Shown: positions 4,157 through 16,727, counted from the stretch's first letter. The stretch: 32,000 nucleotides of DNA from Dickeya dadantii NCPPB 898 (GCF_000406145.1 NZ_CM001976.1:4057472-4089471), one strand, 5' to 3'. Numbers and translations are program-made. The notes: generated by a model not told the origin, from the letters alone.

Positions 4157-4924
4157 TCAGCCATTCAGAATTTGCCACAGCAGGCGACGGTACACCGGCA
4201 TCAACGGATGCTGCCACAGCTGCCACAGACTGACGGCGGCGATAACCGACACCAGCGGCGCCAGCCAGTACAGACGCGAAGCCGTCAACCAACCGGTTGA
4301 TTCGGCTTTCGCTCCGCGACGAACACGCCACAGACGCCACACCAGCCAGCCCGCTCCCCACAGCAAAATAGCCGTGACCAACAGTAGCCACTTGAAACTG
4401 CCGCTGTCGGCCTGTTTGGGGATATCGATCGCCACGCCGGCCAGAATGCCGGGCAGCAGATAAACCGGCGGCCAGGTAAGGCAGCCGATGATATTCGGCA
4501 ACGCAAAGCGCCGGGGCGACAACTCCAGCATCCCCGCCACCATCGGGATCAGCGGACGAGTCGGGCCAAAAAACCGCCCAATCAGGATGGTCGCCATATT
4601 GTGCTGATGCAGCATTTTTTCCGTGCGATACAGATACGCCCGATGCTTTTGCAGAAACGACCAGTTATGCAGCCGGTCCTTGAAACGCCAGCCGATAAAA
4701 TAGGAAATCCAGTCTCCCAGCAGGCAACCGATGATGCCCATGCCCCAGGCCGGGTACAGCCCCATATTACCGCTGCCGATCAGCGCCCCCAGCGACGCCA
4801 TCATCAGCGTGCCGGGCAATAGCAGCCCCACCAACGCCAGCGACTCCAGAAACGCCACCAGCAGTACCGCCGTCAGCGACCAGGCTAACGATTGAGTGAT
4901 CAGATGCTCCAGCCAGGCTTCCAT
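4157..4924 (-). CDS. yabI: DedA-family inner membrane protein YabI
   Basis: 255 aa and multi-TM. VAFLESLALVGLLLPGT, GRFFGPTRPLIPMVAGML and NIIGCLTWPPVYLLPGILAG are collinear with E. coli YabI (254 aa). Confidence 0.88.
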   Translation of the reverse strand: MEAWLEHLITQSLAWSLTAVLLVAFLESLALVGLLLPGTLMMASLGALIGSGNMGLYPAWGMGIIGCLLGDWISYFIGWRFKDRLHNWSFLQKHRAYLYRTEKMLHQHNMATILIGRFFGPTRPLIPMVAGMLELSPRRFALPNIIGCLTWPPVYLLPGILAGVAIDIPKQADSGSFKWLLLVTAILLWGAGWLVWRLWRVRRGAKAESTGWLTASRLYWLAPLVSVIAAVSLWQLWQHPLMPVYRRLLWQILNG

Positions 4925-5035
4925 AAACCTCTACATTTCTGCTTTTTTATGAACAAAGATAACGGGATGATAGCAGGAAACGGCAGGAATATGGCAGATA
5001 GTAGTAAAAGCACGGCTGACGCGAAGCTCACCACG

Positions 5036-5168
5036 ACTGGACAGCCATTTCCTTGAAGCAGCACCCTTTTTTTGTTATAAAAGTATCACTTTAGGACAAT
5101 AAATGGATTGACTCATGGAAGAAGCGAGGATTGCTTTTCCTGTTGGCAACGGGCAGATCAACAGAGTT
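5036..5168 (+). repeat. Copy A of a ~133-bp direct repeat (promoter, 5' UTR and first 18 codons of the muramidase gene)
   Basis: It is collinear with 8362..8493, and the distance from the -35 hexamer to the ATG is 62 nt in both copies. I count about 5 mismatches over the ~94 nt from the -35 hexamer to codon 11. Confidence 0.9.
5053..5081 (+). promoter_or_regulatory. Sigma70-like promoter of the effector-immunity operon
   Basis: TTGAAG (5053-5058), a 17-nt spacer and TATAAA (5076-5081) lie 34 nt upstream of the ATG at 5115. The identical hexamers and spacing recur at 8378..8406. Confidence 0.55.
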
Positions 5169-5966
5169 GAAGACGTAAAAACCGTTCAACAGTTGCTGAA
5201 CAGCCGGTCAAACGGAACACTGAGCGTTGACGGTATTGTCGGCACCAGAACACAGGCAGCCATTATCCACTTTCAACGCCAGATATTAGGAATGGGTACA
5301 CCTGACGGTATTGTCTCCCCGCACGGACCTACACTGAGAAAATTAAACCATCTTCACACCCGACGCCCGGCAACCTCTCAGCCATCATTTTCTGCCGACT
5401 CCGGCGACAGCGTTTCCGAAGAGCTCTATCTGAATGCAGCCAGAGAGCTAAACTGCGAAGTAGCGGCGATTAAAGCGATTGTAATGACTGAAACCGCGCT
5501 AAATAGCGCGTTTATCAGCCCAGGTAAACCCAAAATACTTTATGAACGACACTACTTTCGTCGTCTGACACAAGGTAGATACGACCGGTCAAATCCGGAT
5601 ATATCGGGTGATCAATACGATCGTTATGGTTCAAATAACCGTCAATACGAGCGGCTTGAACAAGCAATAAGACTAGACAGGCGAGCAGCATTAATGTCGG
5701 CCTCATGGGGAGCTTTCCAGATTATGGGGGCAAATTATAGAACAGCTGGCTTTGATGATGTCGAAAGTTTCGTAGCCGCGATGAGTAATATTAATGGGCA
5801 AGTATTTTCTTTCATCAATCATATAAAAAGCTCAACAGTTCTACTTTCAGCGCTACAACATAAAGACTGGAAAAAATTTGCAAGACACTATAATGGCAAG
5901 GATTACGAAAAGAAAAAATATGATTTAATTATAGCTAACAACTATAATCTACTAACAAACAGATAA
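5115..5966 (+). CDS. Peptidoglycan-binding domain plus DUF3380/PF11860-type N-acetylmuramidase; candidate Hcp-associated T6SS antibacterial effector
   Basis: 283 aa with no signal peptide or TM segment. The N-terminal region VKTVQQLLN...DGIVGTRTQAAIIHFQ...GTPDGIVSP looks like PG_binding_1. The C-terminal part carries motifs I associate with the DUF3380 muramidase family (KPKILYERHYF, RRAALMSASWGAFQIMGANY, W.KFARHYNG.DY..KKYD). The gene is AT-rich relative to the flanks. Confidence 0.85.
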   Translation: MEEARIAFPVGNGQINRVEDVKTVQQLLNSRSNGTLSVDGIVGTRTQAAIIHFQRQILGMGTPDGIVSPHGPTLRKLNHLHTRRPATSQPSFSADSGDSVSEELYLNAARELNCEVAAIKAIVMTETALNSAFISPGKPKILYERHYFRRLTQGRYDRSNPDISGDQYDRYGSNNRQYERLEQAIRLDRRAALMSASWGAFQIMGANYRTAGFDDVESFVAAMSNINGQVFSFINHIKSSTVLLSALQHKDWKKFARHYNGKDYEKKKYDLIIANNYNLLTNR

Positions 5967-5975
5967 GGATAAAAA

Positions 5976-6539
5976 ATGAAAAAACTCCTGACATACTTAA
6001 TCATATTATTATCATTCGAATCTTACGCATCTATAAACTTAAAAAAACCTGAAAACATTGATTTTTCCAGGCAACTTACTGAAAAAACAAAATCATTAGA
6101 AATAAGTGACATTAACATAGAAAAAGATCAAACATTTGAAATAGAAAAGGATGGGTTATATCTAGGAACACTAATCCCTGCCGAGGGTTATTATAGAAAA
6201 TACAATCCGCTATGTTTTATTGGTTGGTCGATAGACAAAAAAGAAATCAGTAATATTGTTCCATCTATTGGCCAGGGTGATTTCGAAAATTCAACCTGCT
6301 TAAGTCTCGATGCAGTAGGGAAAATAGACGTTAGCGATAAGACATATATAGGATTTGTCTATACTGTTGGATTAAGAGATAGACGAGCAAAAAACTACTT
6401 CTTGCTTGAGCTGGATAAAGATAAAAGAACGATCGTAGATAAAAGTACAGTTATTGATGAGCTACAGAATAATGGTGAGAAAAAAAGCATTACAGCACTC
6501 CGAAAACATCTTGAAAACACCAAGGAGAAAAAAGAGTGA
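5976..6539 (+). CDS. Paralog 1 of 5: secreted (periplasmic) protein, candidate muramidase immunity/inhibitor
   Basis: 187 aa with signal peptide MKKLLTYLIILLSFESYA|S. AAGGA lies upstream, and the start is 9 nt after the effector stop. It shares the family core GT.IPA.G.Y.NY.PLCFIGWS.DKK.IS.I..S.G.G.FE...C..LDA.GKI....K..IGF.Y.VGL.DR...NYFL.ELD with two conserved Cys. Confidence 0.88.
   Translation: MKKLLTYLIILLSFESYASINLKKPENIDFSRQLTEKTKSLEISDINIEKDQTFEIEKDGLYLGTLIPAEGYYRKYNPLCFIGWSIDKKEISNIVPSIGQGDFENSTCLSLDAVGKIDVSDKTYIGFVYTVGLRDRRAKNYFLLELDKDKRTIVDKSTVIDELQNNGEKKSITALRKHLENTKEKKE
6159..6426 (+). repeat. High-identity segment shared by paralog 1 and paralog 5 (copy in paralog 1)
   Basis: This 268-nt segment is collinear with 9263..9530. 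I count about 23 differences, mostly synonymous. The 5' and 3' parts of the two genes are much more diverged. Confidence 0.8.
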
Positions 6540-7102
6540 GAGCGGTATCAATGATATTCTTTATGGTAATATCGTTGCAATCTTACGCATCAATTAACCT
6601 AATAAAAAACAATGAAGATTCACTGATAAAGCAAGTCATTGAAGATGCCAATAAAAGAGGCATTGTTGATATAAAAATACAAGAAGAGCAAATTTTTGAC
6701 ATTAATGAAAACAATAAAAACATAGGAACAATAATACCAGGAAAAGGATTTTATAAAAATTACTATCCAGTTTGTTTTATTAGCTGGTCTACTGACAAGA
6801 AGACAATATCCAATATTGTCTTCTCAATGGGGAATGGTGATTTTGAGTTTTCACAATGCGAAACCCTTGATGCGCTAGGAAAAATAGAGTCCGCAGGAAA
6901 GATATTCATTGGATTTGTTTATTCAGTCGGTTTACCTGATGGTAGAACGGAACAAAATTATTTTTTATTGGCGCTAGATCAGGATAGAAGAGCTATTGTA
7001 GATAAAAGTAAACTTGTAGAACCTCTGCAAAACACCAATGAAAGAAAAAGTATTTCTGCAATCAGAAGACATCTTAAAAAGGTGATGGAAGATAAAGAAT
7101 GA
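6536..7102 (+). CDS. Paralog 2 of 5: secreted protein, candidate immunity
   Basis: 188 aa. The GTG start overlaps the paralog 1 stop (GTGA at 6536-6539), with AAGGAG at 6522-6527. The signal peptide is MRAVSMIFFMVISLQSYA|S. An alternative ATG at 6551 lacks a charged n-region. The family core is the same. Confidence 0.85.
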   Translation: MRAVSMIFFMVISLQSYASINLIKNNEDSLIKQVIEDANKRGIVDIKIQEEQIFDINENNKNIGTIIPGKGFYKNYYPVCFISWSTDKKTISNIVFSMGNGDFEFSQCETLDALGKIESAGKIFIGFVYSVGLPDGRTEQNYFLLALDQDRRAIVDKSKLVEPLQNTNERKSISAIRRHLKKVMEDKE

Positions 7103-7665
7103 AAGTTCTGTTGGCAATACTCACATTGATAATTCCATTGAGTTCATATTCTACTATTAAACTAACTAAAATTAATGATAGTAGCATATTGAAGAAATTG
7201 ATAATAAAAGGCCAAGCATCAGATATCAGCCGCATAAAAATACAGAAAGATCAGACTTTCGACATCAGCGAAGACGGAAAATACATAGGCACTATCGTGC
7301 CCGCAGAAGGATATTACAACAATATTGAACCACTCTGTTTCATTGGATGGTCTTCAGATAATAAAAATATCTCAGATATAAAAATTTCTATCGGTCGGGG
7401 ATTTTTTGAAACAGTGACCTGCCTGAGTCTCGATGCAGTAGGAAAAATTGAAGTTAAAGGAAAAACGTTCATTGGTTTTGTTTATACCGTAGCATTGCGT
7501 GACAGAACATCGCAAAACTATTTTTTACTTGAACTAGATAAAGAAAGAAAAACAATAACAGACGTAAGCAATACAATTGAAAAACTACAATTTTACTCTG
7601 AAAAGAAAAGCATCATTGATCTTAAAAAGTACCTTGAAGAAAATTTGCAAGCTGTAAAAAGCTAA
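7099..7665 (+). CDS. Paralog 3 of 5: secreted protein, candidate immunity
   Basis: 188 aa. An ATGA start/stop overlap with paralog 2 (7099-7102) suggests translational coupling. The signal peptide is MKVLLAILTLIIPLSSYS|T. The family core is the same. Confidence 0.88.
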   Translation: MKVLLAILTLIIPLSSYSTIKLTKINDSSILKKLIIKGQASDISRIKIQKDQTFDISEDGKYIGTIVPAEGYYNNIEPLCFIGWSSDNKNISDIKISIGRGFFETVTCLSLDAVGKIEVKGKTFIGFVYTVALRDRTSQNYFLLELDKERKTITDVSNTIEKLQFYSEKKSIIDLKKYLEENLQAVKS

Positions 7666-7686
7666 AAACCGTTAAATTTCAGCTTA

Positions 7687-7726
7687 ATTATCTGGCACCT
7701 AATATCACACAATGGTGCCAGATAAT
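7687..7726. terminator. Bidirectional hairpin terminator between the effector-immunity operon and convergent hcp
   Basis: ATTATCTGGCACC (7687-7699) and GGTGCCAGATAAT (7714-7726) form a 13-bp perfect stem with a 14-nt loop. It sits in the 82-bp gap between the paralog 3 stop (7665) and the hcp stop (7748), in A/T-rich flanks. Confidence 0.7.
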
Positions 7727-7747
7727 AACGCAGGAAGATCCCACTAA

Positions 7748-8227
7748 TTAAAACAGCTGACTTTCCCAAATGCAATATGCACTGGTTCCGGCTTTGACAT
7801 GTTCGCATAACATGTTTTTATAAGTAAAAGAGATAAACTCTTCTGGTTGATATTCATTGTGCGTTATCGAACTGGGGTAGTGCATTCTGATATTTTTTAC
7901 TTTTGCATCGGTCAATTTTATTGAGAAATATTGCTCCATCCCCCCATTCTCTGAAGTTCGGTAGAAAATGAAAGTACAGGTTAAATATTCGTTCTCGTTT
8001 AACGTGCTCAATAATAATGGTGTCGATTTATCAATTGGTTTCCTAATTTCAACAGGTTGATATGCAACATTATCGATACGCTCTGCTGCATTGTTTAGCT
8101 CATAGACAAAAATCTCATTTTCATGCCCTTTTTGCCATTTGTTCCCCATTGAGTCATAAGATCCACATCCAGAAGAGATCAGCCCCTGATTTTTACCTTC
8201 TATTTTCAGATAAATGATATTGGCCAT
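7748..8227 (-). CDS. hcp: Type VI secretion tube protein Hcp (TssD), orphan copy
   Basis: 159 aa. The N-terminus MANIIYLKIEGKNQGLISSGCGSYDSMGNKWQKGHENEIFV, the size and the overall pattern resemble enterobacterial Hcp-family proteins as I recall them. There is no C-terminal toxin extension. AAGGGAA lies upstream of the ATG. Confidence 0.82.
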   Translation of the reverse strand: MANIIYLKIEGKNQGLISSGCGSYDSMGNKWQKGHENEIFVYELNNAAERIDNVAYQPVEIRKPIDKSTPLLLSTLNENEYLTCTFIFYRTSENGGMEQYFSIKLTDAKVKNIRMHYPSSITHNEYQPEEFISFTYKNMLCEHVKAGTSAYCIWESQLF

Positions 8228-8361
8228 AAAATTCCCTTTAACAATTGAAATATATTAATTAAGCAAGATACAACCAACGATGATAATGTAATTTCTATTA
8301 CATATCTATATTCTAAGCAAATAAAAATCCTGCCGATACGTGTCAGGATAGTTTAATCATA

Positions 8362-8493
8362 ACTGGCAACCATTGCCTTGAAGCAACACCATTTTTTTGT
8401 TATAAAAGCATCACATTAGGACAATAAATGGATTGACTCATGGAAGAAGCCAGGATTGCTTTTCCTGTTGGTACATTGCAGAACAACAGAGTT
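8362..8493 (+). repeat. Copy B of the ~133-bp direct repeat (promoter, 5' UTR and effector codons 1-18)
   Basis: See copy A (5036..5168). Similarity ends right after AACAGAGTT (codon 18). Confidence 0.9.
8378..8406 (+). promoter_or_regulatory. Second copy of the sigma70-like promoter, now driving paralogs 4-5
   Basis: TTGAAG (8378-8383), a 17-nt spacer and TATAAA (8401-8406) have the same hexamers and spacing as 5053..5081. Confidence 0.55.
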
Positions 8494-8505
8494 AAGTTAG
8501 GGTGA
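8440..8505 (+). pseudogene. Remnant of a second muramidase effector gene (first ~18 codons only; 21-aa ORF)
   Basis: The sequence ATGGAAGAAGCCAGGATTGCTTTTCCTGTTGG... translates to MEEARIAFPVGTLQNNRVKLG*, compared with MEEARIAFPVGNGQINRVEDVK... in the intact gene at 5115. The rest of the effector is absent, and the paralog 4 start follows 5 nt after the stop. Confidence 0.8.
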
Positions 8506-8510
8506 CCCAT

Positions 8511-9077
8511 ATGAAAAAAATAGCACATGCTTCACTATTAATAGCGCTATTGGCCTCATTACAAGCCTATGCATCTATTAATTTAATCAAGAATGAGGAT
8601 AAAACCCTATCAAGTGAAGTAATAAAATATGGAAATAAAAAAGGGCTAGTTGATATAAAAACCCAGAGCGATCAGAGCTTTGACATTATTGACGACGGGA
8701 AATACATAGGAACAATCATTCCAGCCAAAGGATTTCATAAAAACTATTACCCGCTATGCTTTATTGGTTGGTCAACTGATAAAAAAACAATATCAAAAAT
8801 CATCCCATCAATAGGGCAAGGATATTTTGAACTTTCCCTCTGTTCAAAACTTGATGCAATAGGAAAAATAGAGGAAAAAGGAAGAACCTTTATTGGCTTT
8901 ATATACACTGTAGGGTTGAGAGACAGATATGCTCAAAACTACTTTCTCATTGAGCTTAATAGAGAAAAAAGAACTATAGAAGATAAAAGTCAACTCATTG
9001 AAAAATTTCAAAATGACTCAGAAAAAAAGAGCATAGCTGATCTCAGAAGAGATATAAAGAAAATTGATGAGAAATAG
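8511..9077 (+). CDS. Paralog 4 of 5: secreted protein, candidate (orphan) immunity
   Basis: The ORF track starts at GTG 8502. ATG 8511 gives 188 aa, the same as the other paralogs. The signal peptide is MKKIAHASLLIALLASLQAYA|S. The mature N-terminus (SINLIKNEDK..VDIK) resembles paralog 2. The family core is the same. Confidence 0.86.
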   Translation: MKKIAHASLLIALLASLQAYASINLIKNEDKTLSSEVIKYGNKKGLVDIKTQSDQSFDIIDDGKYIGTIIPAKGFHKNYYPLCFIGWSTDKKTISKIIPSIGQGYFELSLCSKLDAIGKIEEKGRTFIGFIYTVGLRDRYAQNYFLIELNREKRTIEDKSQLIEKFQNDSEKKSIADLRRDIKKIDEK

Positions 9078-9079
9078 CA

Positions 9080-9634
9080 ATGAAGAAAATATTGACAATA
9101 ATAACATTATCAATATCGCTTCAAGCGCATGCATCAATTACGTTAACGCCGATTGATAGCAGTAATCTATTATTGCAGCTGTCGATAAAAACACAGCCCT
9201 TGGGAATAGACCAGATAAAAATAGATAATGGACAATCTTTTGACATTACTGAAAACGGTAAATATCTAGGCACACTAATCCCTGCCGAGGGTTATTATAG
9301 AAAATACAATCCGCTATGCTTTATTGGTTGGTCTATAGACAAAAAAGAAATCAGTAATATTGTTCCATCTATTGGTCAAGGTGATTTCGAAAACTCAACT
9401 TGCTTAAGTCTCGATGCAGTTGGAAAAATAGATGTTAGGAAGAAAACATATATAGGGTTTGTTTATACTGTTGGATTAAGAGACAGACGAGCTAAAAACT
9501 ATTTTTTGATTGAGTTAGATAAAGATAAAATAACGATCGCAGATAAAAATGCCCTTGTCGATAGTCTACAAAATAATAGTGATGAAAAAAGCATTGCAAT
9601 GCTCAGGAAAGAGACTGTAATTAAAATTGTGTAA
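9080..9634 (+). CDS. Paralog 5 of 5: secreted protein, candidate (orphan) immunity, 3' end replaced by IS sequence
   Basis: 184 aa with signal peptide MKKILTIITLSISLQAHA|S. The central part is near-identical to paralog 1. From codon 178 (GAG at 9611) the reading frame runs into the IS left inverted repeat, giving the foreign tail ETVIKIV*. Confidence 0.82.
   Translation: MKKILTIITLSISLQAHASITLTPIDSSNLLLQLSIKTQPLGIDQIKIDNGQSFDITENGKYLGTLIPAEGYYRKYNPLCFIGWSIDKKEISNIVPSIGQGDFENSTCLSLDAVGKIDVRKKTYIGFVYTVGLRDRRAKNYFLIELDKDKITIADKNALVDSLQNNSDEKSIAMLRKETVIKIV
9263..9530 (+). repeat. High-identity segment shared by paralog 1 and paralog 5 (copy in paralog 5)
   Basis: See 6159..6426. Confidence 0.8.
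9603..9610. repeat. Left copy of the 8-bp target-site duplication (TCAGGAAA)
   Basis: TCAGGAAA directly abuts the IS left end, and an identical octamer is found at 10926-10933. A 9-bp reading (CTCAGGAAA) is equally possible because the adjacent base is ambiguous. Confidence 0.8.
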
Positions 9635-10925
9635 TTGCCTGTTTTTGATATGTTCACTCCAACAACGGAGACAGGCAAACGATGGACGAAAAGAAACTCA
9701 AAGCACTGGCTGCTGAATTGGCTAAAGGCCTTAAAACCGAAGCTGACCTCAATGCGTTTTCCCGCATGCTGACGAAGTTAACCGTCGAAACCGCGCTCAA
9801 TACAGAACTGACTGAGCATCTCGGGCACGAGAAAAATGCCCCTAAATCAGGCTCTAATACCCGAAATGGTTACTCGTCTAAAACCGTGTTATGCGACGAC
9901 GGTGAGATTGAACTGAGTACGCCACGTGACCGCGAAAACACCTTCGAGCCGCAACTGATAAAGAAAAATCAGACACGTATCACGCAGATGGACAGCCAGA
10001 TTTTATCTCTGTACGCCAAAGGCATGACGACCCGTGAAATCGTTTCTACATTCAAAGAGATGTACGATGCTGATGTGTCTCCCACGCTGATATCCAAAGT
10101 GACCGATGCGGTTAAAGAGCAGGTGACAGAATGGCAAAACCGGCCACTGAACCCGCTATATCCCATTGTTTATCTTGATTGTATCGTGGTGAAAGTCCGT
10201 CATAGCGGCAGCGTCATTAACAAAGCGGTATTCCTTGCGTTGGGCATCAACACAGACGGCCAGAAAGAGCTGCTGGGTATGTGGCTGGCCGAAAACGAAG
10301 GCGCGAAGTTCTGGCTCAATGTGCTGACGGAGCTTAAAAACCGGGGACTTCAGGATATCCTGATTGCCTGCGTGGACGGTCTGAAAGGTTTCCCGGAGGC
10401 GATAAACAGCGTTTATCCTCAGACACATATCCAGTTATGCATCATCCATATGGTGCGCAACAGCCTGAAATATGTCTCGTGGAAGGATTACAAGGGCGTC
10501 ACCAGCGGGCTGAAAGCGGTGTATCAGGCCCCAACTGAGGAAGCGGCGTTGATGGCGCTGGACAAGTTCTCCGGCATCTGGGATGAAAAATACCCCCAAA
10601 TCAGTAAAAGCTGGCGTGCGCACTGGGAAAATCTCAACACGTTCTTTGGCTACCCGCCGGATATCCGCAAGGCTATCTACACCACCAATGCCATCGAGTC
10701 GCTGAACAGTGTTATTCGGCAGGCGATAAAGAAACGTAAGGTGTTCCCGACAGATGATTCGGTACGTAAAGTGATTTATCTGGCAATACAGTCGGCCTCG
10801 AAAAAATGGAGTATGCCGATCCAGAACTGGCGGCTGGCGATGAGCCGTTTTATTATCGAGTTCGGTGACCGCCTGAGCGATCACCTTTAATACGGTGGCA
10901 ATTACACAGAATTATTTACAGGGTC
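9611..10925 (+). mobile_element. IS256-family insertion sequence (~1.3 kb)
   Basis: It carries a single Mutator/IS256-type transposase ORF. The terminal inverted repeats are imperfect: GAGACTGTAATTAAAATTGTGTAATTGCC (9611-9639) against the reverse complement of 10897-10925, GACCCTGTAAATAATTCTGTGTAATTGCC, with 23 of 29 matches by my count. The element is flanked by the 8-bp direct repeat TCAGGAAA. Its base composition is intermediate between island and core. Confidence 0.9.
9682..10890 (+). CDS. IS256-family (Mutator-like) transposase
   Basis: 402 aa. MDEKKLKALAAELAKGLKTEADL...TELTEHLGHEK...YLDCIVVKVR...ACVDGLKGFPEAI...IQLCIIHMVRNS...TTNAIESLN is the typical layout of IS256/IS285-like transposases. 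Confidence 0.93.
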   Translation: MDEKKLKALAAELAKGLKTEADLNAFSRMLTKLTVETALNTELTEHLGHEKNAPKSGSNTRNGYSSKTVLCDDGEIELSTPRDRENTFEPQLIKKNQTRITQMDSQILSLYAKGMTTREIVSTFKEMYDADVSPTLISKVTDAVKEQVTEWQNRPLNPLYPIVYLDCIVVKVRHSGSVINKAVFLALGINTDGQKELLGMWLAENEGAKFWLNVLTELKNRGLQDILIACVDGLKGFPEAINSVYPQTHIQLCIIHMVRNSLKYVSWKDYKGVTSGLKAVYQAPTEEAALMALDKFSGIWDEKYPQISKSWRAHWENLNTFFGYPPDIRKAIYTTNAIESLNSVIRQAIKKRKVFPTDDSVRKVIYLAIQSASKKWSMPIQNWRLAMSRFIIEFGDRLSDHL

Positions 10926-10933
10926 TCAGGAAA
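10926..10933. repeat. Right copy of the 8-bp target-site duplication (TCAGGAAA)
   Basis: It is identical to 9603-9610 and directly abuts the IS right end. Confidence 0.8.
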
Positions 10934-10960
10934 TATTTTTCTCAAAACATCTCACGTTAA
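10934..10960 (+). pseudogene. Displaced original 3' end of paralog 5 (8 codons plus stop)
   Basis: Removing the IS and one TSD copy joins ...ATG CTC AGG AAA to TAT TTT TCT CAA AAC ATC TCA CGT TAA. This restores ...MLRKYFSQNISR* (185 aa), which is comparable to the LRKHL/IRRHL/LKKYL tails of the other paralogs. Confidence 0.65.
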
Positions 10961-11006
10961 TCCAGACGTATCATTAATTATAAATCCAGCAGGAAAATAG
11001 AGGCAA

Positions 11007-11399
11007 TTATAACAGCAATTCAAAATAAGTAGCATTATCTTCACGATTAACGGAAAGCACAATAAATTTATTTTTATCTGGCGATTCCCATACCTCTCGG
11101 TAGCCATCATCCATATTGAGCGTAAACTTCAATAATTTCAAATAGTTCCTTAACGTCTCAATATCGGTGGTATTTTCAAAATATATACCAGTGACCTGCT
11201 TCCCAGGCCCTTCAGCATCGCCGTGTTTAATTTGATATTTTTGAGATATTTTGGGTACGTTTTTTATTATTGGATCAATTAATTGACTGCTGTCAAAACC
11301 AATCAAAGAGGGGATGCAAGCACCAACATTAAGAGAATAGGTAAGAAAAGATGAAATAAAAATCAGCCTGAACAATATGTTCATATGTTTCTTACTCAT
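11007..11399 (-). CDS. Small hypothetical lipoprotein (orphan, AT-rich)
   Basis: 130 aa. The N-terminus MSKKHMNILFRLIFISSFLTYSLNVGAC has a charged n-region, a hydrophobic core and a lipobox-like VGAC. I recognise no family. It lies at the right end of the AT-rich island. Confidence 0.65.
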   Translation of the reverse strand: MSKKHMNILFRLIFISSFLTYSLNVGACIPSLIGFDSSQLIDPIIKNVPKISQKYQIKHGDAEGPGKQVTGIYFENTTDIETLRNYLKLLKFTLNMDDGYREVWESPDKNKFIVLSVNREDNATYFELLL

Positions 11400-11510
11400 T
11401 ATTCTTTAAGTACAGTGGTTAATTCACTTGCGCCACGAAATCCCAACCAGATCACATAGAAAAGAGACTGATCGAAGGCATAACCTAAACCAGAGCAACA
11501 ATATAGACAA

Positions 11511-11534
11511 GTGCGCCGACGTGACACGGCGCAC
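11511..11534 (-). terminator. Hairpin terminator downstream of the liv-like operon
   Basis: GTGCGCCG (11511-11518) and CGGCGCAC (11527-11534) form an 8-bp GC-rich stem with an 8-nt loop. It lies 10 nt past the livF-like stop. On the minus strand it is followed by TTGTCTATATTGTTG. Confidence 0.6.
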
Positions 11535-11543
11535 TCTCTTCTC

Positions 11544-12231
11544 TCATCCCCCCAAATACATCCGCTTAACCTCCGGATTGGCGAGAATCTCCTGCGCCGG
11601 GCCATGCAATGCAATACGACCGTTTTCCAGCACATAGGCGCGATCGGCGATTTTCAGCGCCGCGGTGGCGTTCTGCTCTACCAGCAGGATGGTGATGCCT
11701 TCTTTTTGCAACTGCTTGATGGTTGAGAATAATTCGCCCACCACCTTCGGCGCCAGCCCCAGGCTTGGTTCGTCCAGCATCAGTAACACCGGTTCGCTCA
11801 TCAGCGCGCGGGCGATTGCCAGCATCTGCTGTTCGCCGCCGCTCATGGTGCCGGCCATCTGGCCGCGCCGTTCTTTGAGACGCGGAAACAGCGCGTACAT
11901 TTTGTCGCGCAGGTAGGTAAAGTTGACCGGGTTATTGTAAGCGCCCATACGCAGGTTTTCTTCAATGGTCAGATTGGTGAACACCTTGCGCCCTTCCGGC
12001 ACCAGCGCCAGCCCTTTGCGCACGATTTGGTGCGTTGGGCTGTGGGAAATATCCTCGTTGAGAAAACCGACCGCTCCGGTGGATTTCACCAGATTGATGA
12101 TGCCGTTGAGAGTTGAGGTTTTCCCGGCGCCGTTGCTGCCGATCAGGGTGACGATTTCGCTGTTGTTCACTTCCAGATCGATGCCTTTTAGCCCCTGAAT
12201 CAGCCCGTAAAACACCTGCAGATCGCTGGCC

Positions 12232-12239
<8 letters not shown>
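11544..12239 (-). CDS. livF: Branched-chain amino acid (HAAT-family) ABC transporter ATP-binding protein, LivF-type
   Basis: 231 aa with Walker A GSNGAGKTS, signature SGGEQQMLAIARAL and Walker B LLMLDEPSLGLAP. It is the last gene of a 5-gene operon with overlapping start/stop codons. This may be a paralogous HAAT system rather than the canonical liv locus. Confidence 0.85.
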
Positions 12240-13000
<761 letters not shown>

Positions 13001-13011
<11 letters not shown>

Positions 13012-14044
13012 TCGCGCTTCTCCTGCGGATATCCCAGACTTCCTGCTTGCCCAGCAGCCCTTCGCGGGCGAACAGCATGATCACCAGCAGCACCAGCGAG
13101 AACACCACCATCCGCAACCCCGGATGCGCCCCCAGATCCTGGCCGAACAGCGTCAGCGGTTGATCGAGGAAGCGCAGCCACTCGCCGCTGCCGATCACGA
13201 TGATCGTGCCGAGAATGGCGCCGGTGGTGCTGCCCAACCCGCCGAGTACGATGATGATCAGCAACTGGAAGGTCAGCATGAAGTCGAACAGATCCGGCGA
13301 GATGATCGTCAGCAACGACGCCAGCAGCCCGCCGCCGATGCCCTCGAAAAAGGCGCTGGTGGCGAAAGCGCAGGTCTTGACGCGAAAGGTATTGATGCCC
13401 ATTGCAATCGCCGCGTCTTCATCGTCGCGCACCGCTTTCATGGCGCGGCCGTATTTGGAGTAGACCAATTGTAGGATGAACAGCACCGCCGCCAGCGCGA
13501 TGAAACCGCACCAGTACAGAATATGACTGACCTGCGGGATCTCGTTCAGACCAATGGCGCCGTTGGTAAATTGCGGGTTATTGATGGCGAAGATCTTGAT
13601 GATGAAGCCGAACCCCAGCGTGACGATCGCCAGATAATCGCCGCGCACGCGGAATACCGGAAACGACAGGCACACCGCCACCGCCGCCGCGCATACCCCG
13701 CTGATGATCAGCGCCGGCAGAAACGACGCATGCACCGCCAGAATCAGCGGGCTGGGCGCCGTCATCTCGAACATATTGGTTTTGGCATCCGCGCTCAACA
13801 GCAGCAGCGCCGTAATGTAAGCGCCGATCGCCACAAAGCCGTTAGGCTCCAGCGACAGCTGCCCGGTCACGCCGTTAATCAGGTTATAGCTGACCGCCAG
13901 AATCATAAAAATGAAGATGTTACAGAAGATGCGCACGATATAGTCATTAAACAGCGCATCCAACCCGGTCAGCGCCAGCAGAGCCAGCGCAAACACGGCG
14001 AAATATCCCAGCCACATCGTCGGGGAAGTCCGCGGCATTCTCAT
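13001..14044 (-). CDS. livM: Branched-chain amino acid ABC transporter permease, LivM-type
   Basis: 347 aa and multi-TM. Its ATG shares a base with the upstream TGA stop (TGATGA at 14046-14041 on the minus strand). It sits between the LivH-type and LivG-type genes. Confidence 0.82.
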
Positions 14045-14946
14045 CAGAAACGGCTCCTTTCCAGTCGTTCGTCGCCCATAATGCCTACCGGTCTGAACAG
14101 CAGTACCAGAATCAAAAACATGAAGGCAAAGGCGTCTTTATAGCCGCCCAATTCCGGAAACAGCGCCACCGCCACCACTTCGGTAAAGCCGAGGATAAAA
14201 CCGCCGATCACCGCGCCGGTGACGCTGCCGATGCCGCCCAGCACCGCCGCGGCGAAGGCTTTCAGGCCGATCAACACCCCCATCAGCGGATCGATAGAGG
14301 GGTAGCTGATGGCGTAGAACACGCCGCCCAGCGCCGCCAGCGCGCTGCCGAGCGCGAACACGAAGGCGATGATCTGGTTGGCGTCGATGCCCATCAGCCG
14401 CACGGTGTTGACGTCAAACGCCACCGCGCGGATCGCCATCCCCTGCCGGGTGCGATAAAGAATGCACAGGATCACCGCCAGCAGCGCCAGCGTCATCAAC
14501 GGTACGATCCAGGCCACATTGGTGACGACGATCGGCCCGAGATTGATGGTCTGATTAAAGAACGGCGGCGACTCGAAGTAACGCGGGCTGCCGCCGAACA
14601 CCACATTGAACAGGTTCTCCAGAAAGAAACTGACGCCGATGGCGGTGATCAGCATCGAGATCTTCGATGCCTGCCTAAGCGGGCGGTAGGCGATTTGATC
14701 GATACCGATCCCCAGCAGCGCGGCGATGAGAATGGCGAGGATCACGGCGGCCCCGAAAGGCAACCCGAGGGAGGTGAAACCGAGCAGGGCCATAAAAGCC
14801 CCGACCATCATGATATCGGCATGAGCGAAGTTGATCAGCCGCAGCACGCCGTACACCATGGTATAGCCGATGGCGATCAGCGCGTACATGCTGCCAAGGC
14901 TCATGCCATTGACCACTTGCTGCAAGAAAACGGCAAGATCCATCAT
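14044..14946 (-). CDS. livH: Branched-chain amino acid ABC transporter permease, LivH-type
   Basis: 300 aa and multi-TM. The N-terminus ...QQVVNGMSLGSMYALIAIGYTMVYGVLRLINFAHAD is typical of the LivH/BraD family. Confidence 0.85.
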   Translation of the reverse strand: MMDLAVFLQQVVNGMSLGSMYALIAIGYTMVYGVLRLINFAHADIMMVGAFMALLGFTSLGLPFGAAVILAILIAALLGIGIDQIAYRPLRQASKISMLITAIGVSFFLENLFNVVFGGSPRYFESPPFFNQTINLGPIVVTNVAWIVPLMTLALLAVILCILYRTRQGMAIRAVAFDVNTVRLMGIDANQIIAFVFALGSALAALGGVFYAISYPSIDPLMGVLIGLKAFAAAVLGGIGSVTGAVIGGFILGFTEVVAVALFPELGGYKDAFAFMFLILVLLFRPVGIMGDERLERSRF

Positions 14947-15073
14947 GTCATCCTTTACTGTTAGGCTGCGCCCCGCCTTGCTATTCGCGGATGCCGCTAG
15001 CGGCGATGATTCCGCGCGGCAAGGCGCCAGCCGTGAAGTGTGGTAGACCAGACAAACGACGGGGCAAAGCCGA

Positions 15074-16210
15074 TTACGGGTTGATCACCGTTTTAAACAC
15101 CATCTCGCCGCCTTTCACTTCGTTGATCACCGCCGGACGAATGGCGTCGCCGTCTTTCAGGGTCAGGGTGCCGGTGATGCCGGTGAAGTTGCTGGTAGCG
15201 CGAATCGCCTTGTTGACGCAGACGCGATCGTGCGGATCGCTACAGGTGTTCATGGCGTTGACGATCATCTTGTAGGCGTCCGCCGTCATCGCTCCCCAGG
15301 TGTGGGTCGGTTCCTTGTATTTGGCGGTCCAGGCTTTGATGAACTTTTCCCCTTCCGGCGTCTGCTCTTTGGCGTTCGGCGAGTAGTAGTCGGTGGTCAT
15401 CCACCCTTCCACCGCATCCTGCCCCATTTTGAAGAACACCGGATCCGCCGCCAGACCGTCGCCGCCGACCACCGGCACCTTCAGCCCGAGCTGTTTGGCC
15501 TGCACGGCGATCAGCGCGCCTTCGGTGTAATAAATCGGCATGTAGATCACGTCCACATTGTGGGATTTGATGGTGGAGAGCTGGGCTTTGAAATCTTTGC
15601 TGCCGCCGGGCGCCTGCACTTCAATCGGGATGGTGCCGCCGTTTTTCAGGAATTGGGTGCGGAATGATTTAGCCAGCCCTACCGAGTAGTCGTTGCTGCT
15701 GTCGAACATGATGGCGGCTTTCTTCGCCTTCAGGTCGCGGGTCGCCAGATTGGCGCCGACCACGCCCTGAAAACTGTCGGAGAAGCAGACGCGGCTGACG
15801 TACTCCTTGCCTTTGGTCACCCGGTCGTTGGTGGCGGTCGGCGAGACGATCGGCGTTTTGGTGTCTTCCGCCATTTTAGTCATCGCCATGGTATTGGTGG
15901 AGGTCACCTCGCCGATCACCGCATCCACTTTATCGCTGGATACCAGGCGCTGCATGGCGTTGGCCGCTTCCACCTTGTCGCTCTTGTCGTCAATCACCAC
16001 CAGCTTGATGGTATCGCCGTTCTTCAGTTTGGTATCGATACCGTTAATCAGTTCCAGTCCTTTCAGCGACGGCTGACCATAACCGCTCAATGCCCCGCTC
16101 AGGGGCAATACCACGCCAATCTTGATGTCATCCGCCCACGCCCCCACCGAAGCCAGTGAAGACGATACGGCTACCGCTGCGACAGTAAATCTGAAAAATT
16201 TGTTCTTCAT
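15074..16210 (-). CDS. Periplasmic amino-acid-binding protein of the HAAT ABC transporter (LivJ/LivK-like)
   Basis: The ORF track start (16237) is trimmed to ATG 16210, which is preceded by GAGG plus a 5-nt spacer. The signal peptide is MKNKFFRFTVAAVAVSSSLASVGAWA|DD. It shows a type I periplasmic binding protein pattern (IKIGVVLPLSG...). It is the first gene of the operon. Confidence 0.82.
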   Translation of the reverse strand: MKNKFFRFTVAAVAVSSSLASVGAWADDIKIGVVLPLSGALSGYGQPSLKGLELINGIDTKLKNGDTIKLVVIDDKSDKVEAANAMQRLVSSDKVDAVIGEVTSTNTMAMTKMAEDTKTPIVSPTATNDRVTKGKEYVSRVCFSDSFQGVVGANLATRDLKAKKAAIMFDSSNDYSVGLAKSFRTQFLKNGGTIPIEVQAPGGSKDFKAQLSTIKSHNVDVIYMPIYYTEGALIAVQAKQLGLKVPVVGGDGLAADPVFFKMGQDAVEGWMTTDYYSPNAKEQTPEGEKFIKAWTAKYKEPTHTWGAMTADAYKMIVNAMNTCSDPHDRVCVNKAIRATSNFTGITGTLTLKDGDAIRPAVINEVKGGEMVFKTVINP

Positions 16211-16727
16211 GATCGCCTCTTCAAAAATAAAGATCACATTTCAGTTGTGAAATGACGCTGCATACAGGGTGATAAAAAGAAGATCTGTGTGACAGGATAT
16301 CCAGGCTGTTCACCGGGGAAGTGGCAGCAATAAATATGCCAAAATAACAAGAATAATTAATGTATTAATAATCAAAACATAAAAGAAAAAGATATGAATA
16401 ATTCCCCCGCCCCGCGCAGCCGCCTTTGGCGGCCATGCACCAATTGATTACCGCCATGCTTTTTATTAGTGCGAAAACGGCATCGCTTTTCACAGATAAA
16501 TCAACCAATAGCAAAAGATGCCATATGGGTGATCATGCGTTTCCCCATAAATGTATTATTCTCTGTCTATCATTTTGCAGCGCGACGGCTTCAGCAATTA
16601 TTTCCGGAATAGTTTCGTTTTCATCGTTTTATTCTGAATGGAATACCTTCAGGTTAAATAAACATTCCTAACAACAATGCAACACCGTGGTCTGGCAATA
16701 ACGGTATGGAGAATGAAACTGGACAAG

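Follow-up and report, generated by a model that had tools for sequence, protein, structure and literature searches.

In Pantoea, PG_binding_1 proteins encoded in hcp islands were proposed as type VI secretion system (T6SS) effectors in 2011 and 2014 (PMC3235180, PMC3942780), and an N-acetylmuramidase protein of P. agglomerans T6 was named 'Ame' in a 2023 preprint, which loosely linked it to LprI genes and reported an HHpred match to the endolysin 7RUM (10.1101/2023.03.17.533219). PANA_2363 of P. ananatis LMG 20103 and Ame are both putative effectors of the T6SS-1 hcp island (PMC3235180; PMC3942780; 10.1101/2023.03.17.533219). Additionally, V. cholerae VgrG-3 type I carries a DUF3380 (PF11860) domain (PMC5361080), and an N-acetylmuramidase C-terminus has been predicted in 353 WHIX effectors (PMC12135965). 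The glycoside hydrolase effectors Tge1 (Tse3), Tge2 and Tge3 are accompanied by periplasmic Tgi/Tsi3 immunity proteins (Whitney et al. 2013, cited in PMC3942780). Here, we describe a block located at 5115-9634 of a 32,000-nt stretch of Dickeya dadantii NCPPB 898 (the window; all coordinates are positions within it unless a locus is named). Based on the listing of its open reading frames (ORFs), this block is composed of a muramidase gene, five paralogous genes encoding signal-peptide proteins (I1 to I5) and an orphan hcp gene. We consider it very probable that it represents a polymorphic T6SS effector-immunity locus of D. dadantii, a reading that appears to hold strongly on comparative evidence alone.

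A preliminary description of the locus had proposed a candidate undescribed system, composed of an Hcp-linked muramidase effector and of its immunity proteins downstream. The effector-immunity interpretation is supported by the T6SS linkage, the co-variation, the orphan modules and the lack of a phage lysis context reported below; for the effector, the term 'undescribed' finds no support, given the earlier predictions in Pantoea (PANA_2363, Ame), in VgrG-3 and in the WHIX proteins. In the literature searched, which was mostly open-access, we found no experimental characterization of the PF11860 class of T6SS effectors and no description of the partner family of ~185 amino acids (aa). Three observations appear to be new here: the existence of the immunity family, the broad range over which it is paired with PF11860 effectors, and the polymorphism of the cassette in Dickeya.

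The Pfam search of the 283-aa product of the first gene recovered both of the domains assigned to it in the preliminary description, namely PG_binding_1 (PF01471) at aa 19-69, with E=2.7e-7, and the PF11860 Muramidase domain at aa 115-278, with E=3.9e-56 and a score of 190.5 bits (cut-off, 22.3); the latter match covers profile positions 1-172 of 175. In a database search, the protein was 100% identical to one D. dadantii protein. Its AlphaFold2 (AF2) model has a predicted local distance difference test score (pLDDT) of 88, and the linker is disordered in it at aa 82-91. The sequence search of the PDB with this protein returned PF11860 endolysins alone, i.e., Pae87 (7q4s), AP3gp15 (5nm7) and LysT84 (7rum), and the Foldseek search with the model returned 5nm7, 7rum and 7q4t with E values of 1e-13 to 1e-15. 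Residue E126 is aligned with Glu101 of AP3gp15 (5nm7), whose E101A mutation decreases the muralytic activity by 99.4% (PMC5674055), and it is invariant in alignments of 21 and of 22 homologues. Based on these endolysin-like matches and on the conservation of E126, the protein is probably an active endolysin-type muramidase that stands outside Tge1-3. Like the Tge proteins, it would be a cytoplasmic muramidase delivered to the periplasm of the target, T6SS-linked and with the gene for its cognate periplasmic or lipoprotein immunity partner immediately downstream; unlike them, its model matches 4luq (Tse3) and 4kt3 (Tge2) with E values of just 1.4 and 3.8, against 1e-15 for the PF11860 endolysins.

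The presence of export signals was judged with a crude hydrophobicity measure, the best N-terminal 10-mer on the Kyte-Doolittle scale. The value for the muramidase is 1.05, and no signal peptide is seen, versus 2.3-3.4 in the paralogs, in agreement with what had been noted from a first inspection of the sequence. By this test, the effector would lack a Sec/Tat signal and the paralogs would carry one, which is the distribution expected of an effector and its periplasmic immunity proteins. Since the muramidase has no export signal, it cannot reach the peptidoglycan of the cell that produces it.

The comparison within Dickeya included the window and seven other loci, L001, L002 and L090-L094, which cover D. 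dadantii, D. oryzae, D. undicola, D. parazeae and D. fangzhongdai. In all eight, the island is located at the same site, after ilvGM-dedA. Where the contig allows, the same plan is found: the effector gene is followed by between one and three family genes, by an hcp gene in convergent orientation that encodes 159 aa, and by zero to two further family genes, after which the island borders polB or the liv ABC-transporter operon. The six full-length, gap-free Dickeya effectors were used for an analysis of mosaic structure. Over their first 110 residues, which correspond to the PG-binding domain and the linker, all pairwise identities are 90-100%, whereas the catalytic part (aa 111-283) is 89-97% identical within a type and 72-80% identical between types; the segments aa 161-180 and aa 241-283 are hypervariable. 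Four effector types can be distinguished, each with its own kind of first downstream gene. Type A (L090, L002 and L094) is followed by an I2-like gene, type B (L091 and L001) by an I4-like gene, type C (this window) by I1, and type D (L092) by an I3-like gene that is 83% identical to I3.

In seven loci, the identity of the catalytic domain and that of the first paralog are strongly correlated (Mantel r=0.94; 2 of the 5040 exact permutations reach this value), as opposed to a Mantel r of 0.06 between the N-terminal part of the effector and the first paralog. The N-terminal parts of L091, L001 and L094 are 100% identical, and yet the catalytic domain is of type A, with an I2-like gene, in L094, and of type B, with an I4-like gene, in L091 and L001. 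Likewise, the identity between the effector genes of the window and of L090, both from D. dadantii, is 97.6% over nt 1-330 and drops to 77.5% over nt 331-849; the I2-I3 pair is common to both loci, and I1 is inserted ahead of it in the window. This pattern bears the signature of a swappable cassette formed by the catalytic domain and the first immunity gene, with a putative recombination breakpoint that falls within the cargo gene, where the two domains meet. Immunity genes that co-vary with the toxin domain in seven loci point to cognate specificity.

The other paralogs of the array are, in other loci, the first-position partners of other effector types; they are therefore interpreted as orphan immunity genes. 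A direct repeat of 127 nt (5042-5168 versus 8367-8493, 90% identical) places a second copy of the start of the effector operon ahead of I4. This copy includes a remnant ORF with an ATG at 8440 (MEEARIAFPVG...), which retains the first 11 effector codons, followed by a junction and a stop codon at 8503-8505. The same remnant precedes the I4-like gene in the other D. dadantii strain (L090, position 9768). The segment 8367-8505 and its surroundings look like a second effector-immunity module from which the effector was deleted and in which I4 and I5 were kept as orphan immunity genes. The presence of such an effector-deleted module behind hcp, here and in L090, supports the orphan-immunity interpretation. 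The translated remnant, directly before I4, reads MEEARIAFPVGTLQNNRVKLG, followed by the stop.

A scan of 185,579 species genomes yielded 78 loci with effector relatives, and 16 further loci were fetched individually; effector-paralog pairs were searched for with tblastn and locally iterated hidden Markov models (HMMs). A member of the paralog family is located directly downstream of the effector homologue in 30 of the 78 scan loci and in 10 of the 16 individually fetched ones. These paired loci span Gamma-, Alpha- and Betaproteobacteria and Acidobacteria. Among the carriers are Erwinia, Pantoea, Mangrovibacter, Sphingomonas, Polymorphobacter and Acetobacter, as well as other Acetobacteraceae, Beijerinckiaceae, Ruegeria, Ideonella and three Acidobacteria. 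The identity of the effector homologues to the window protein is 48-52% in Pantoea and 45-52% in the chromosomal T6SS-linked clade.

In Pantoea, the gene order is tssK-tssL-tssM-tagF-tssA-tssB-tssC-hcp, followed after 70 bp by the effector gene and a family member, and then by LprI genes, a second family member and tagH; the pair thus lies within the tssJ..tssC / tagH..tssF cluster, in the arrangement of the classical 'hcp island'. The Erwinia and Pantoea loci L003-L009 have the same layout. In two Sphingomonas species (L018 and L022, ~10000-11600), the pair interrupts the core T6SS operon, with tssG on one side and clpV on the other, and is not part of an hcp or vgrG island; in the Beijerinckiaceae locus L019 clpV is located upstream on the contig. 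The Mangrovibacter order is tssF-tssG-clpV-kinase-vgrG-DUF1795-effector-family member-DUF1795-PAAR-Rhs. Genetic linkage to the T6SS is therefore apparent here and in four lineages. In Mangrovibacter (L085/L086, 9564-11913), the pair is bracketed by two DcrB/DUF1795 genes of the Eag adaptor type; a DUF1795 gene beside an effector without an obvious transmembrane segment is unusual. Effector homologues of marine gammaproteobacteria have other surroundings: that of Pseudoalteromonas (L089) belongs to an Rhs/CHAP/lipase island and is followed by an overlapping, unrelated gene encoding 144 aa (10878-11312), and no small gene follows that of Vibrio neptunius (L087). Since these marine homologues are not accompanied by the two-cysteine family, other immunity solutions must exist for the effector family.

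Judged by their published descriptions, Ame and PANA_2363 resemble the window protein in being ~280-aa PG_binding_1 plus N-acetylmuramidase proteins known by prediction alone. The Pantoea genes are co-directional with hcp in the main T6SS cluster, whereas the Dickeya effector gene belongs to an orphan island, and the hcp gene there is convergent and of another subfamily. The ~185-aa partner was not named in the Pantoea papers; the preprint pointed to the LprI genes, whereas the conserved partner found here is the two-cysteine family. Five paralogs and cassette swapping have not been described for the Pantoea system and are a feature of Dickeya in our comparison.

The five paralogs are 48-68% identical in pairwise comparisons, and their N-termini are strongly hydrophobic, ending in ...YA/SI. 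The preliminary description did not recognize them as any known immunity or lysozyme-inhibitor family, and every search made bears this out. I1 to I5 have no Pfam or NCBIfam family match, with no Pfam match even at E<=0.1; the sequence profile of the family has 0 matches in the PDB at E<=10; and neither in sequence nor in fold does the family match Ivy, MliC/PliC, PliG, PliI, LprI, Tsi3 or Tgi2. The AF2 model of I1 (pLDDT 82.9; predicted template modelling score, pTM, 0.78) has ~12 beta strands and a C-terminal helix. When this model was searched with Foldseek against the PDB and BFVD, nothing was found at E<=0.001, and the weak top matches were beta-propellers; no lysozyme inhibitor structure is present among its top 50 PDB matches, all of which are non-significant. 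In this respect the paralogs differ from Tgi/Tsi3, since neither the immunity model nor the profile has a PDB match, Tsi3 and Tgi2 included.

In an alignment of diverse family members, C80, C108 and Y129 (I1 numbering) are invariant, and Q52, G99 and G115 are near-invariant. Among 176 family-sized homologues, the N-terminus is hydrophobic in 158, a lipobox-like motif is present in 25, and exactly two cysteines are present in the mature region of 143; the mature paralogs probably contain one disulfide bond, C80-C108. A HMMER search of 1.84 billion representative proteins (clustered at 50% identity) gave 148 matches at E<=1e-3, 53 of them at E<=1e-10, and the family is therefore small. All 49 homologues of I1 obtained from the word index are Dickeya 'hypothetical proteins'. 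With the diverse family profile, the word-indexed search likewise gave mainly Dickeya among the matches listed, the Erwinia and Pantoea members having been obtained with tblastn and local HMMs. Taken as a whole, the paralogs appear to constitute a new, apparently undescribed immunity family. We slightly favour the stronger proposal that this two-cysteine, all-beta family is a structurally new class of PF11860-muramidase inhibitors, paired with its targets across Proteobacteria and Acidobacteria and able to discriminate between effector variants whose catalytic domains differ by only ~20-25%.

When 21 diverse members were compared with Pfam at E<=10, the sole relevant match was FG-GAP, in one member (E=0.001). 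Five long FG-GAP proteins (P0251, P0261, P0269, P0273 and P0282) have 4-10 matches each to positions ~100-137 of the family profile. Based on the FG-GAP matches in the long proteins and in the one member, the central hairpins of the family may be FG-GAP-like, and no family assignment is justified. The same five proteins also weakly match the Pfam models of PliI and of CarG-like proteins. A relationship of the paralogs to PliI was considered and rejected as unsupported: 0 family members match PliI, and no PliI structure is found among the top 50 Foldseek matches, themselves non-significant. Two further features of the family were observed. I1 and I5 are 90% identical over 300 nt (6158-6457 versus 9262-9561) and have divergent ends, the overall protein identity being 68%, which suggests gene conversion or recombination between them. 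In Erwinia, some of the family members encoded in hcp islands are 280-285 aa long (L003, 11441-12298; L005, 11889-12731) and share a conserved C-terminal extension of ~95 aa (…GEPG…VEKHGG.CPGD…RLFSVYVD…).

According to the mechanism that we propose, the effector would be made in the cytoplasm as a PG_binding_1 domain joined through a flexible linker (~aa 80-100) to the PF11860 muramidase domain, with E126 as the catalytic residue. A T6SS encoded elsewhere would inject it into nearby Gram-negative cells, where it would reach the periplasm, carried by the adjacent orphan Hcp or by a VgrG/PAAR spike. There, it would bind peptidoglycan and cleave its glycan strands, leading to lysis. The ~185-aa paralogs would be exported by Sec to the periplasm, probably acquiring the single C80-C108 disulfide, and would bind the catalytic domain so as to neutralize incoming or leaked effector. 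Specificity would be type for type: the product of the gene right after the effector (I1) would be the cognate immunity protein, and I2-I5 would be kept as orphan immunity genes against other effector types circulating in the genus. New types would arise through recombination events in which the catalytic half and the first immunity gene are replaced as a unit. The domains, the conserved catalytic residue, the export signals, the T6SS linkage in several lineages, the co-variation of the cassette and the effector-deleted modules are observed; the secretion route, the toxicity, the direct binding, the disulfide and the identity of the carrier are the predicted parts of this scheme. Descent of the effector from modular phage endolysins belongs to this best explanation, in which, as a whole, we place high confidence.

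The hcp product is assigned to PF05638 (E=4.6e-19) and TIGR03344 (E=1e-53), and its PDB matches are 6a2v, 3he1 and 5mxn; an exact-sequence look-up of the window Hcp returned no record. The D. dadantii and D. oryzae versions of this protein share 97% identity, a conservation equal to that of the flanking core genes in spite of the AT-rich composition of the island, and its gene adjoins the locus at a constant position in all the Dickeya loci whose sequence reaches it. D. dadantii has been reported to contain a T6SS plus three hcp-vgrG-rhs loci, and D. paradisiaca to be devoid of a T6SS (PMC4028081). Several observations weigh against the locus being a T6SS effector-immunity system served by its own Hcp. 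The Dickeya Hcp and the Pantoea Hcp encoded beside the homologous effector are only 24% identical, so that a specific Hcp-cargo relationship is not conserved; hcp is convergent with the effector gene and is not co-transcribed with it; and the effector, at ~32 kDa, is larger than most cargo of the Hcp lumen. With locally built profiles, no T6SS core gene was found within 10 kb at about half of the pair loci, among them Sphingomonas L083, Acetobacter L011 and the Acidobacteria loci. Finally, the co-variation was obtained from seven loci that represent just four types. The first three of these points fit a system that is otherwise the same and whose carrier is a VgrG/PAAR spike encoded elsewhere, hcp being a co-resident or the source of an extra tube subunit. 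The homologous pair of Mangrovibacter, which follows vgrG and a DUF1795 adaptor-type gene and not hcp, the Pseudoalteromonas homologue in its Rhs/CHAP/lipase island, and the fusion of PF11860 domains to VgrG-3 (PMC5361080) and WHIX (PMC12135965) point in the same direction. Against it, hcp, 97% conserved, is the sole T6SS gene linked to the effector in all the Dickeya loci examined, hcp is immediately followed by the effector gene in Erwinia and Pantoea, and no vgrG, PAAR or adaptor gene was found in the island of the window among its ORFs and Pfam matches. We regard a carrier other than the adjacent Hcp as a genuine but rather doubtful possibility.

The loci devoid of nearby T6SS genes would also suit an interpretation in which no weapon is involved. 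Periplasmic lysozyme inhibitors unrelated to the T6SS, such as Ivy, MliC, PliG and PliI, exist, and the muramidase could be an autolysin or wall-remodelling enzyme with periplasmic inhibitors, or the paralogs could be general inhibitors of lysozymes or endolysins from a host or a phage. The weak similarity of the FG-GAP proteins to the PliI model is in line with this idea. However, an autolysin without an export signal would have no access to the peptidoglycan of its producer, a type-specific co-variation with the catalytic half is not expected of a general inhibitor, the T6SS linkage recurs in four independent lineages, and the family is distinct in sequence and fold from Ivy, MliC, PliG, PliI and LprI; we consider this interpretation improbable. 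The effector does have the architecture and fold of a modular endolysin. A Salmonella phage endolysin, attributed to Rodriguez-Rubio in 2016, reportedly combines PG_binding_1 and DUF3380 in the same way. The endolysins AP3gp15 of a Burkholderia phage (5NM7) and LysT84 of an E. coli phage (7RUM), whose muramidase activity has been shown biochemically, share its two-domain architecture, fold and catalytic Glu, and 5nm7, 7rum and 7q4s match it in sequence and fold over the full length. Among 50,697 phage records, 822 endolysin-type matches to the effector were found. Together with the AT-rich composition of the island and its insertion sequence (IS), these similarities could indicate a degenerate prophage lysis cassette located beside hcp by chance. 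Such a cassette is, nonetheless, highly implausible. All the phage matches are at most 39% identical to the effector, as opposed to 45-52% in the T6SS-linked chromosomal clade; the dedicated periplasmic partner family has 0 matches in the same phage records; and, unlike that of the phage endolysins, the catalytic domain of the window gene is polymorphic and swaps with its partner. Neither the island of the window nor the annotated homologous loci contained genes for a holin, a spanin, an integrase or phage structural proteins, no intact prophage with holin and spanin surrounds a homologous locus among the 94 loci, and the constant ilvGM-dedA site in every Dickeya locus examined, in at least six species, is unlike a phage attachment pattern. 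The preliminary description had named prophage lysis cassettes in relatives as one of the findings that would overturn it; given the lack of phage genes in the annotated contexts and of paralogs in phages, the homologous loci are not of this kind. The reading as a T6SS effector-immunity locus is the one retained below.

The displacement dynamics that we propose have precedents. In V. cholerae modules, including that of VgrG-3 type I, a new cassette displaces the effector and older immunity genes stay as orphans (Kirchberger 2017, PMC5361080), and the orphan immunity arrays of Pantoea hcp islands follow the same dynamics (Carobbi 2022, PMC9796082). The Dickeya locus differs from these arrays in that its toxin would be free cargo and not a VgrG C-terminal extension, in the putative breakpoint inside the cargo gene, and in that all the array members belong to one paralog family. 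Two other candidates were discarded during the comparison with the literature: the P. ananatis protein TseG, which is DUF2169-linked and contains pentapeptide repeats, is another effector, and the paper on Tse1 of P. chlororaphis does no more than cite the DUF3380 paper. Geller 2021 contains nothing relevant.

Table 1. Features of the system and of its surroundings in the window of D. dadantii NCPPB 898
Feature	Coordinates	Strand	Description	Basis or remark
Putative 5′ leader/promoter region of effector operon	5042..5114	+	Copy at 8367-8439	Role from position and conservation
Effector	5115..5966	+	283 aa; PG_binding_1 and PF11860 N-acetylmuramidase domains; no signal peptide	Domain search
Paralog I1	5976..6539	+	187 aa; predicted periplasmic and cognate to the effector type of this strain; C80 and C108 conserved	ORF, co-variation
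Paralog I2	6536..7102	+	188 aa; predicted orphan immunity gene; partner of type A elsewhere	Dickeya comparison
Paralog I3	7099..7665	+	188 aa; predicted orphan immunity gene; partner of type D in D. fangzhongdai	
Orphan hcp (tssD)	7748..8227	-	159 aa; convergent with effector operon	PF05638, TIGR03344
Second promoter copy (putative) and effector remnant	8367..8505	+	Remnant of 21 codons	Direct repeat
Paralog I4	8511..9077	+	188 aa; predicted orphan immunity gene; partner of type B elsewhere	Dickeya comparison
Paralog I5	9080..9634	+	184 aa; predicted orphan immunity gene; 3′ end altered by IS	
IS256-family element	9611..10925	+	Transposase 9682-10890; interrupts the system and is not part of it	PF00872, NF033543
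Predicted lipoprotein	11007..11399	-	130 aa; AT-rich; far island edge; membership uncertain	

As shown in Table 1, the system is compact. The layout set out in the preliminary description is recovered from the ORF coordinates: the effector stop codon and the I1 start are separated by 9 nt, I1 and I2 overlap at 6536-6539 and I2 and I3 at 7099-7102 (4 nt each), and 82 nt lie between the end of I3 (7665) and hcp (7748), to which we add that hcp is on the minus strand, convergent with I1-I3 and divergent from I4-I5. Because of this orientation, hcp is not co-transcribed with the effector gene. The AT-rich composition of the block within a GC-rich core is also evident, the GC content in the window scan being 0.33-0.38 over 5501-9500 versus 0.56-0.67 in the flanks. 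This 33%-GC island is regarded as horizontally acquired. The I4 ORF is open from 8502, and its likely start is the ATG at 8511. In a scan of 4900-9700 for promoter and terminator consensus sequences, the counts equalled the shuffled expectation; a promoter function of 5042-5114 is suggested by the position of this segment and by its conservation in the duplicate.

The IS256-family element (PF00872, E=9.4e-116; NF033543, E=1.1e-126) is bounded by imperfect inverted repeats of 30 nt (9610-9639 and 10897-10926) and flanked by an 8-bp target duplication, TCAGGAAA (9603-10933). The stop codon of I5 at 9634 is supplied by the element, and the last 8 codons of the gene have been replaced, so that the C-terminus, originally ...LRKYFSQNISR, is now ...LRKETVIKIV.

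Between the IS element and livF, the 130-aa ORF has a lipobox-like motif (LNVGAC) and no Pfam or NCBIfam match. An ORF of equal size is found in L090, on the same strand and at the same position relative to livF, and L092 carries a gene encoding 153 aa at the equivalent site. Its product could be an orphan immunity protein of another family. In D. dadantii and D. fangzhongdai, the livFGMH operon, with its binding protein gene (11544-16237 in the window), separates the island from polB. The liv operon is absent from this site in D. oryzae and D. parazeae (L001/L091/L094), and hcp abuts polB there.

The locus would leave the general view of T6SS effector-immunity systems unchanged. If our interpretation is true, the paralogs would be the first defined immunity family for the endolysin-type (PF11860) T6SS muramidases, for which there are several predictions, in Pantoea, in Vibrio and among WHIX proteins, and the loose naming of LprI genes as their partners would be corrected. 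A type-specific inhibitor of DUF3380 muramidases would, we infer, also bear on endolysin-based antimicrobials that employ this domain, and the paralogs could be ready-made resistance determinants against DUF3380-based therapeutic endolysins. For the genus itself, a swappable cassette would sort Dickeya strains into four or more compatibility types, and these effector/immunity types would form together with the orphan arrays a concrete, testable strain-compatibility map of the Dickeya soft-rot pathogens that co-infect crops.

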